Source: Escherichia coli
GTDB taxonomy: Bacteria > Pseudomonadota > Gammaproteobacteria > Enterobacterales > Enterobacteriaceae
Assembly (NCBI RefSeq): GCF_013315695.1
Contig: NZ_CP054353.1
Reading direction: 5' to 3' (one strand)
Length of the DNA stretch: 64,000 nt
Below are positions 15,001-18,000 of this stretch, one piece after another. The position numbers were made by a program. Position 1 is the stretch's first letter. Each line of letters starts with the position of its first letter.

Positions 15001-18000
15001 GCCTGGTTGAGCGTTGACTCATCAATGACGTCGGCGGTGAGCGTGGAAATAATCGGTATTTGCCCCGGCTCCGCGTGCAGTCCCGCGCAGGCGTCCTGGA
15101 ACCGATCGAGTATCGGCTCCAGTAAAGCGGAGTGCGCCGCACCGGTTACGCTCAGGCGACGATAGTTAATGTCATGCTGCGAGAGCGTGGCGCAAAATAC
15201 CGCGAGACGGGCTTCCGGCCCGGAAAATACCGTATGTTGCGTACCGTTGTTGGCGGCGAGATCCAGCTCAAACTGGCGAGCCAGCGGCATCAGCGTGTCT
15301 TCGTCTGCAAATACCGCCACCATCGCGCCGCTTGCGCACTGCTGCATTAGCGCGCCGCGCCGACAAACCAGTGGCATGACCTGTTCAATCGTATAGTGTC
15401 CGCAGACAACGGCAGCGGCAAATTCACCGACGGAATGCCCAATGGCGAAGTCTGGCTTCAGTCCTTCAGCACGCCAGTGCGCCGCCATCGCGATTTCAAA
15501 CGCGACAATCGCCGGCTGCGCCCAGGCCATATTGTCCAGCTGCGCCGAATCGGGGTTAAACATCGCTTCGCGCAGTGACGGCGTGAGCATTTCGCTACAG
15601 GCGGAAAAACAGCGATCCAGCGTGTCGGCAAACGCCGTTGAGTGATGGTACATCGTTTGACCCATAGTGCGCCAGTGCGAGCCCTGGCCGGTAAACAGCC
15701 ACACCTGCTTGCCGCTGGCGCCGTGGCCGCTGTAAACCAGCGCCCCCGATTTCTCACCGGCCCAGGCGCTGAGCGCCTCGGCGGTTTCACGGTTTAATGG
15801 CGCCGCCAGGCGGAAGGGGAGATCGAGACGGCGCGCGTGCAGGGCTGTGAAGGCCAGAGAGCTGGCATCCGCATTCTCTCTCAGCGCCCCGGCATAATCC
15901 GTCGCCAGCCGCCGCAACGCGCTGTCGCTGGCGGCGCTGAGCAGCAGCGCGGTACTTTTTCTGCCGCTATCCGTATTGGGGAGGCGCGCGTTGAGCGCGT
16001 CGGGCAGCGAGGCGACGATCATATGGCAGTTGGTGCCGCCAATACCAAAGGAGGAGACGCCCGCATAGCGCATTTCGTCCTGCCATGCCTGTGCCGACAC
16101 CGGTATGGTAAAGGGGCTCTCTTCAAGTTTCAGCGCCGGGTTGGGGGTGTGAAAATTCAGTAAGGGAGGAATTTGCCCGCGACTGACTGCCAGAACGGTT
16201 TTCAGCAGTCCGGCAATGCCCGCCGCGGTATCCAGATGGCCCATGTTACTTTTCACGGAACCGAGCGCACAGCGCTGATCCTGCGGGCGAGGCGCATAGA
16301 CGTTGCGTAACGCTTCAATTTCAATCGCGTCGCCCAGCGGTGTGCCGGTGCCGTGGGTTTCAATGTAACCTACCTGCCTGTCGTCGATGGCCGCCAGCAT
16401 TAACGCCTCTTCGATGACTGTCTGTTGCCCTGCGACGGAAGGGGCGGTATAGCCGACCTTTCTGTTGCCGTCGTTGTTGACCGCGCTGGAGAGGATCACC
16501 GAGATAATCGGATCGCCTGACAGCAGCGCGTCTCTCAGGCGACGCAGCACCACGCAGCCGAGACCGTTACCGGCCCAGGTGCCCTCAGCCGAGGCGTCAA
16601 AGGGACGACAGTGACCATCAGGAGAGAAAATCATTCCGGGCTGGTAGCGGTAGCCTGCCTGCTGGGGGAAAGAGAGCGCCACGCCGCCGGCAACCGCCAT
16701 ATCGGATTCGCCTGCGCGCAGGCTTTCACAGGCCAGATGCACGGCAACCAGCGAGCTGGAGCAGGCGGTCTGTACCGATAACGCCGGGCCGTGCAGGTTG
16801 AGTTTGTACGCGGCGCGGGTGGCAATATAGTCTTTATCATTGCCCATCAGAGATTGCAGACCTTTTACCTGCGCGACTTCTGTCACGTTCAATGCTTCGC
16901 GACCGGGGTAGGTACTCATCCGGGAAGAGGCGAAAACGCCGGTCTTATGGGGGACGGCGCCGGGGGCATAACCGGCATGTTCCAGCGCATGCCAGACCGC
17001 CTGCAAAAACAGGCGCTGCTGCGGGTCCATCGACTCCGCTTCCTGTCGCGAATAGCCAAACAGGGTGGCGTCGAAGCAGTCGGCGTTGTCTAACACCGTA
17101 CCGATATTGACATAATGAGGATCGTCAATGATGGCGGCATCCAGACCGACGGCCAGAAGCTCTTCGCGCGTAAAGCGTCGGCTGCATTCACGACCTTCCA
17201 GCAGATTTTGCCAGAACGTTTCGCCATCCGGCGATTCAGGAAAATGGCAGGCGTAGCCGATAACCGCGACAGGTTCGCAGTCCGGGTAGTGTTGAACGAT
17301 CGATGCATCAATGGAATCTGCTGTCGGCGCAGAAGAGAAGCGCAAGTTATCCATAATCGGTCCCGTTTCCTAAGATTCACAAAGTCAATGGAACGCCATG
17401 CGTTCGCGATGGCGTTCCGGGGAAAATCAGTTTGCTTCGCGCTATATCCGCCGCTGACGACGGCGAACAGGGCGAGGTCGTTTTGTTTTCTCCACCGTGG
17501 CGACGCCGGCCAGATAATCGGCCAGGGCAGCAGGAGAAGGGTGGGTGAAGAGGTCAAGCAACGTCAGGGTGGAAAATTCGTGACGTTGTAACAAAACGTG
17601 CAGTTGCACCAGATTCAGCGACGTTGCGCCCGCCTCAAAGAAGTTTTCTGCGGGCGTGACAGACTCGCCAACCACCTCGCGGAAGGCGTCGCAAATCAGG
17701 CTGACGGTGCTCTCGTCCGCCGCAATGTGTGGCTGAGAGTGCTCAGGGCATACGCGCGGTGAGCGCTCTGCGCATTGCCCTGCGTGTTTAACGGGAGGCA
17801 CCAGCGCGGCGAGCGGCAGTTGCCAGCCGCTTTCATCCTCGGCCATTCGGTTTAGCAATGCGCAATACTGTTCAAACTGGCGCTCCACCTGCCCGGCAGG
17901 AAACAGCGCGGCGACAAAATCCCAGTTAAAGCGCAGTTCGCCTTCGGATTCATAAATCTGGTGATCGAGTCAGACCTGCGGCGTCTGGGAGATGCCCCAG

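Follow-up and report, generated by a model that had tools for sequence, protein, structure and literature searches.

We analysed a 64,000-nucleotide stretch of Escherichia coli DNA (assembly GCF_013315695.1, contig NZ_CP054353.1), referred to here as the window, which carries the yersiniabactin (ybt) locus of the high-pathogenicity island (HPI). Both megasynthase genes of the locus are pseudogenes. The irp2 gene, encoding HMWP2, is interrupted by one nonsense codon, and irp1, encoding HMWP1, by a nonsense codon and a deletion. The features concerned are as follows.

17442..23549, minus strand: irp2 (HMWP2) pseudogene, 6108 nt, the length of the intact gene, interrupted by a single nonsense codon
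17970..17972, minus strand: premature TGA at irp2 codon 1860 (W1860*, ancestral TGG), within the Cy-domain core motif QVxLDxQ
17442..17969, minus strand: orphaned 3' part of irp2 (175 codons and the natural stop), encoding the last ~50 Cy2 residues and PCP2 (GATSL, Ser1977)
7990..17354, minus strand: irp1 (HMWP1) pseudogene, 9365 nt against 9492 nt in the intact gene, with open reading frames (ORFs) of 1558, 413 and 1193 aa
12678..12680, minus strand: premature TAG at irp1 codon 1559 (W1559*, ancestral TGG)
11663..11673, minus strand: junction of a 127-bp deletion in irp1, at an 11-nt imperfect direct repeat (GGCGACGCCTG / GGCGTCGCCTG)

The identity of irp2 was established by the gene order ybtA-irp2-irp1-ybtUTE-fyuA and by near-identity and colinearity with annotated irp2; the region around the stop is 99.7-100% identical to 2265 E. 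coli irp2 loci. The minus strand around the stop reads ...CAG ACG CCG CAG GTC TGA CTC GAT CAC CAG..., and the base directly 3' of the TGA is C. In the ORF listing, the irp2 frame spans 17970..23567 (minus strand) with a GTG start and 1865 aa. Counted from the RefSeq start (ATG at 23549), the gene has 2035 codons, and the stop is codon 1860, after 1859 sense codons. Translation past the TGA yielded 175 further in-frame codons, ending at the natural stop at 17442-17444. When the window gene was compared codon by codon with the intact irp2 of strain NU14, the two were colinear with zero indels; 29 codons differ, and TGG to TGA (W1860*) is the sole nonsense change. The ancestral base at position 17970 is also present in MS 21-1 and SE15, the two closest intact irp2 alleles. 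The gene thus has the marks of a nonsense pseudogene, namely a sense TGG in relatives and a conserved frame and sequence beyond the stop. RefSeq labels DNA identical to the window irp2 as 'internal stop' in strains MSB1_4I and AF3.

An earlier note on this DNA had described irp2 as open for 1865 codons up to a TGA at 17970-17972, with the same frame continuing downstream. It had taken the TGA for a former tryptophan codon, TGG, by analogy with the motif QTPQVWLDHQ of the irp1 paralogue, and had proposed an alignment to intact irp2. The codon count agrees when the GTG at 23567 is used (1859 from the RefSeq ATG), the paralogous motif was located at HMWP1 residues 2290-2299, and the translation and the NU14, MS 21-1 and SE15 comparisons bear out the rest.

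Of the 28 codon differences from NU14 irp2 other than the stop, about 20 fall in codons 1532-1633 (window 18650-18956). This cluster has the look of a tract recombined between ybt alleles, and it is common to the ST131-type (sequence type 131) alleles (SE15, MS 21-1).

Heterocyclisation domains have QVxLDxQ as their last core motif. W1860 lies within this motif (residues 1858-1864), which recurs in HMWP1. In a Pfam search, intact HMWP2 showed three PP-binding stretches, two Condensation stretches, an AMP-binding domain and an embedded methyltransferase-like domain, the second Condensation match covering residues 1530-1905. The 175-residue orphaned tail gave a PP-binding match at its residues 92-153 (E=5.5e-10), and the serine motif of PCP2, GATSL, corresponds to HMWP2 residues 1974-1978. 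The order of domains is ArCP-Cy1-A(embedded MT-like/E)-PCP1-Cy2-PCP2, in agreement with the described HMWP2 architecture ArCP-Cy1-A(E)-PCP1-Cy2-PCP2 (PMC9547227), and the last PP-binding domain lies in the orphaned tail. Among known structures, Cy2 matched 7JTJ/7JUA (E=1e-292); the same query also matched PchE, 'dihydroaeruginoic acid synthetase' (7EMY). The crystallised Cy2 spans residues 1483-1910, with subdomains at 1483-1665 and 1666-1910 (C-terminal); Q1858 is the conserved glutamine after the latch, the phosphopantetheine (Ppant) site of PCP2 is Ser1977, and 2HPTT, the Cy2 product on PCP2, is handed to HMWP1 (PMC9547227). Mapped onto these positions, W1860* removes Cy2 residues 1860-1910 (~50) and all of PCP2, including Ser1977. 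The earlier note had expected that truncation would cost the protein its final carrier domain and the end of its second cyclisation domain. Both expectations hold, with the stop falling inside the Condensation match as well as the crystallised Cy2, and the Ppant serine lying in the tail. Compared with intact HMWP2 of Yersinia pestis or E. coli, the window irp2 is alike in gene, length, synteny and domain order, and around the site shares 99.7% identity with intact E. coli alleles; it differs by one nonsense codon and is without Cy2 1860-1910 and PCP2.

The second megasynthase gene carries two lesions of its own. The 127-bp deletion takes out the Cy3 entry motif FPLTPIQHAYWLGR and throws irp1 out of frame at about codon 1895, and RefSeq labels the identical irp1 DNA in MSB1_4I and AF3 as 'frameshifted; internal stop'. 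The two complete genomes, of 2264, that carry the irp2 stop are also the two with W1559*, and the exact 1558-aa N-terminal fragment of irp1 was found on 569 contigs. Among the records listed of 2265 matching the deletion junction, only MSB1_4I and AF3 matched it in a single piece; the other four listed records span 127 nt more there. One sub-lineage, represented by locus L014 (GCA_964049465.1, OZ040295.1), has an extra nonsense codon in irp1, Y1118* (TAC to TAG, corresponding to window 14001-14003; region L014:19549-19616), which suggests that the synthetase genes are still decaying. The irp1 lesions, together with the clonal spread described below and the RefSeq pseudogene flag, are additions to what the earlier note had reported.

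The distribution of the irp2 stop was traced with probes and with the truncated protein. A 61-nt probe centred on the stop was identical in 2 of the 2264 matching complete E. coli genomes and one base off in the other 2262. Two complete genomes matched a 601-nt probe at 100% identity: MSB1_4I, from a rectal swab in Australia, and AF3, from a blood culture in the UK. Since only 2 of 2264 irp2-bearing complete genomes carry the TGA, it marks a single clone. The exact 1859-aa irp2 product was found on 555 contigs (NCBI, JGI, ENA, Logan) and is listed in 968 index blocks; gut metagenome assemblies are among its records, and two ENA metagenome assemblies appear among the locations displayed. The stop is also present in five fetched loci (L010-L014) from NCBI and ENA assemblies, and so was reproduced in MSB1_4I, AF3, the window and these five. 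The five form two subclades. The clone subclades are separated by single-nucleotide polymorphisms (SNPs) at 12215, 12484 and 32360, and the loci in both carry all three lesions. AF3 differs from the window by the SNPs at 12215 and 12484. The window equals MSB1_4I over 1-35433, and the prophage beyond has diverged (~130 mismatches, several indels), which makes the window a further isolate. The stop site lies outside any homopolymer.

The closest intact relative, MS 21-1, is without all three lesions and shares the flanking prophage, including its frameshifted integrase. On either side of the island the backbone shares 99.9% identity with MS 21-1, FDAARGOS_1373 and the ST131 clade A O16:H5 strains Ecol_448 and Ecol_743, which places the clone provisionally near ST131. 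The irp2 stop is a genuine inherited mutation that RefSeq already annotates as a pseudogene allele.

These results are best explained by a single G-to-A transition in the ancestor of the clone, which would have turned Trp1860 of irp2 into TGA and then been inherited vertically. Translation would halt in the last conserved Cy2 motif. The product would lack the last ~50 residues of Cy2 together with the whole of PCP2, the domain that carries the hydroxyphenyl-thiazolinyl-thiazoline intermediate for transfer to HMWP1. With W1559* and the frameshifting 127-bp deletion in irp1, both megasynthase genes are pseudogenes, and yersiniabactin would not be assembled because irp1 and irp2 are both dead; the receptor, importer, regulator and accessory genes are still open. 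Vertical inheritance of W1860* and, with the irp1 lesions, abolition of yersiniabactin assembly are together very probable.

Several points weigh against this reading or narrow it. A UGA followed by C is a leaky termination context. In E. coli K-12, UGA readthrough reaches ~2% at 37°C through Trp insertion (PMC10570021), and such leakiness would remake wild-type HMWP2 at a low level. Readthrough of HMWP2 would be no rescue, because irp1 has been disabled independently. What the DNA shows directly is the mutations with their ancestral states, the domain positions and the clonal distribution, and it is from these that we infer the loss of yersiniabactin production. The intact accessory biosynthesis genes argue only for a recent event and are silent on selection.

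The other genes of the island, on which the alternatives partly turn, are these.

2359..4380, minus strand: fyuA, yersiniabactin outer-membrane receptor, intact ORF of 673 aa
4512..7993, minus strand: ybtE, ybtT and ybtU, accessory biosynthesis genes, all intact
23740..24699, minus strand: ybtA, AraC-type regulator, intact
24956..31062, plus strand: ybtP, ybtQ, ybtX and ybtS (import ABC transporter, MFS transporter, salicylate synthase), all intact
31256..32518, minus strand: HPI integrase beside tRNA-Asn (32680-32755), with an annotated ATA start (32516-32518)

The likeliest of the alternatives is that the loss was selected. The clone would then be a siderophore 'cheater' or cost-saver, with FyuA and YbtPQ kept for the yersiniabactin of neighbours or for other functions of FyuA or YbtX. 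The genotype fits, in that irp2 carries W1860*, irp1 carries W1559* and the 127-bp deletion, and fyuA (with V595L), ybtP and ybtQ are open; all clone members examined have intact copies of fyuA, ybtP, ybtQ, ybtX and ybtA. Across RefSeq, no inactivating defects were reported in fyuA or ybtQ and the rate was highest for irp2, and the same paper cites the emergence of cheaters and within-host loss of siderophore synthesis (PMC10282060). The clone is also successful, with hundreds of assemblies that include blood-culture and gut isolates. Against this, ybtS, ybtE, ybtT and ybtU are as intact as the uptake genes, which gives no sign that uptake was selectively retained over biosynthesis, and SNP density in irp1/irp2 is not clearly above that elsewhere in the island. 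Loss-of-function hits make up three to four of the ~10 irp1/irp2 mutations, against 3.5-3.9% of random substitutions that create stops, which would also favour selection. We rejected this nonsense excess as evidence of selection: 3 of 9 SNPs gives a P of about 0.004, but one of these stops was ascertained and one, Y1118* of L014, came from a display favouring altered gene structure. Once the ascertained stop was conditioned on (2 of 7 SNPs, unbiased sample), the excess was not significant. Selected loss is possible but rather unlikely, and the evidence does not decide between a neutral and a selected cause.

A more elaborate proposal would make this lineage a natural cheater clone. In this globally distributed clone, which also causes bloodstream infection, the three to four independent truncating hits in irp1/irp2 would reflect positive selection against costly megasynthases, FyuA and YbtPQ would be kept for piracy, and HMWP2 1-1859 may release a salicyl-thiazoline shunt product. 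We consider the combination quite improbable.

Partial activity of the truncated protein, taken by itself, is improbable. By analogy with PchE, ArCP-Cy1-A-PCP1 might make hydroxyphenyl-thiazoline, which might be released as a dihydroaeruginoic-acid-like shunt acid. HMWP2 1-1859 includes ArCP, Cy1, A and PCP1 (Ser1439), unchanged save for a few substitutions, ybtS, ybtE and ybtT are intact, and the match of the Cy2 query to PchE (7EMY) indicates that the Cy domains are related. HMWP2 1-1491 is reported, from work of Gehring and colleagues in 1998 (cited in PMC7344775), to be active alone in vitro, which would also favour such activity. On the other side, Cy2 is cut in its C-terminal subdomain, which may make it misfold and leave the entire 205-kDa protein unstable, and the 5' part of irp2 carries no sign of selection keeping it.

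A functional split gene, in which a truncated HMWP2 would work with a separately made PCP2, was also considered. Gene callers do call a PP-binding ORF of 134 or 148 aa in the tail. No Shine-Dalgarno-like sequence was found by eye before GTG 17888 or ATG 17846. The split gene was rejected on this ground and because the Cy2 residues from 1860 to the first codon of the ORF would be encoded by neither product.

That the irp2 TGA is decoded, by selenocysteine insertion, programmed readthrough or leaky Trp insertion, so as to give functional HMWP2 and a working pathway, is extremely unlikely. The C after the TGA does make a weak termination context. UGA is the leakiest E. coli stop, misread by Trp-tRNA at ~2-4% in K-12 (PMC10570021), and misreading would restore the ancestral residue. 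However, an 81-nt stretch that begins just before the stop folded no better than shuffled sequence (z = 0.08), and an Rfam search near the stop returned no relevant element. The sequence downstream is the same as in TGG alleles, so that nothing has evolved there for recoding. The TGA is not conserved, being present in 2 of 2264 complete genomes, and the paralogous Cy domain of HMWP1 has Trp. Selenocysteine insertion and programmed readthrough were rejected on these grounds and on the dead irp1. The earlier note had named readthrough to a functional product as what could overturn it; even full readthrough of irp2 would still give no yersiniabactin, given the TAG codon and frameshifting deletion of irp1 in the same clone. 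A sequencing or assembly error, the other outcome that note had named, with TGG as the true base and irp2 intact, is scarcely credible: a single-base substitution is the type of error that a consensus can hold and only 2 of 2264 complete genomes show the TGA, but the identical base occurs in separately sequenced Australian and UK isolates that differ elsewhere by SNPs, in the window genome and in five further NCBI/ENA loci, the 1859-aa protein is exact on 555 contigs, the site is not in a homopolymer, and both irp1 lesions co-segregate with it.

An inherited loss of yersiniabactin assembly has a close parallel in strain CFT073, which is without yersiniabactin owing to in-frame stops in irp1 and irp2 (PMC10282060). 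The two are alike in that the HPI is present, the receptor and other genes are kept, and both megasynthase genes have premature stops. They differ in lineage, CFT073 being ST73, and in the positions of the mutations; the combination of W1860*, W1559* and the 127-bp deletion is specific to one clone (2/2264). In Supplementary Data 9 of Royer et al. (2023), irp2 defects were recorded in 103 of 2302 RefSeq strains (4.47%), irp1 defects in 27 and fyuA defects in none, which makes irp2 the most often inactivated HPI gene (PMC10282060). That survey has the same pattern as found here, dead synthetases with an intact receptor; it gives rates, whereas here a single-ancestor event was traced to hundreds of descendants. 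Chromosomal iro and sit were reported as associated with HPI inactivation (PMC10282060). In ATCC 11775, the E. coli type strain, irp2 was inactivated independently while the ybt locus is otherwise complete, and RefSeq flags the lesion (L003:11743-17852). In contrast to the present case, that gene has a frameshift in place of a nonsense codon, and irp1 is undamaged.

The clone is a further instance of documented siderophore-pathway decay, and its exact allele is already flagged in RefSeq. It adds a well-resolved, inherited example in which the HPI synthetase genes decay and the receptor is kept. Typing by the presence of irp2 or fyuA, whether by polymerase chain reaction or BLAST, would score the clone as yersiniabactin-positive though synthesis is almost certainly impossible, and virulence-gene scoring should check the integrity of ORFs. 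Because at least one member came from blood culture, strains of this background can evidently cause invasive infection without making yersiniabactin.

Some further observations concern the rest of the island and its flanks. The V595L substitution in FyuA (window 2598) is clone-specific and is not present in MS 21-1 or SE15. For the HPI integrase, gene callers give 320 or 420 aa on identical DNA, and the gene may be weakly expressed or silent. The integrase protein accession is also found in SE15 and MS 21-1 and is not clone-specific. Outside the window, MSB1_4I has a stand-alone ClbS/DfsB-family gene beside an ISEc53 transposase, between sbmC and dacD (L015:23038-24795); no colibactin island was found at the tRNA-Asn genes near it. 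Beyond fyuA (window 1-1765) lie an inverse-autotransporter beta-domain gene and a partial Ig-like-domain pseudogene that is frameshifted and has an internal stop, an arrangement that is the same in SE15 and MS 21-1. At the other end, a lambdoid prophage with a frameshifted integrase occupies 33864-64000 beside tRNA-Ser. The insertion is common to MS 21-1, AF3 and MSB1_4I, and the window prophage diverges from that of MSB1_4I (~130 mismatches, several indels) beyond ~38.4 kb.

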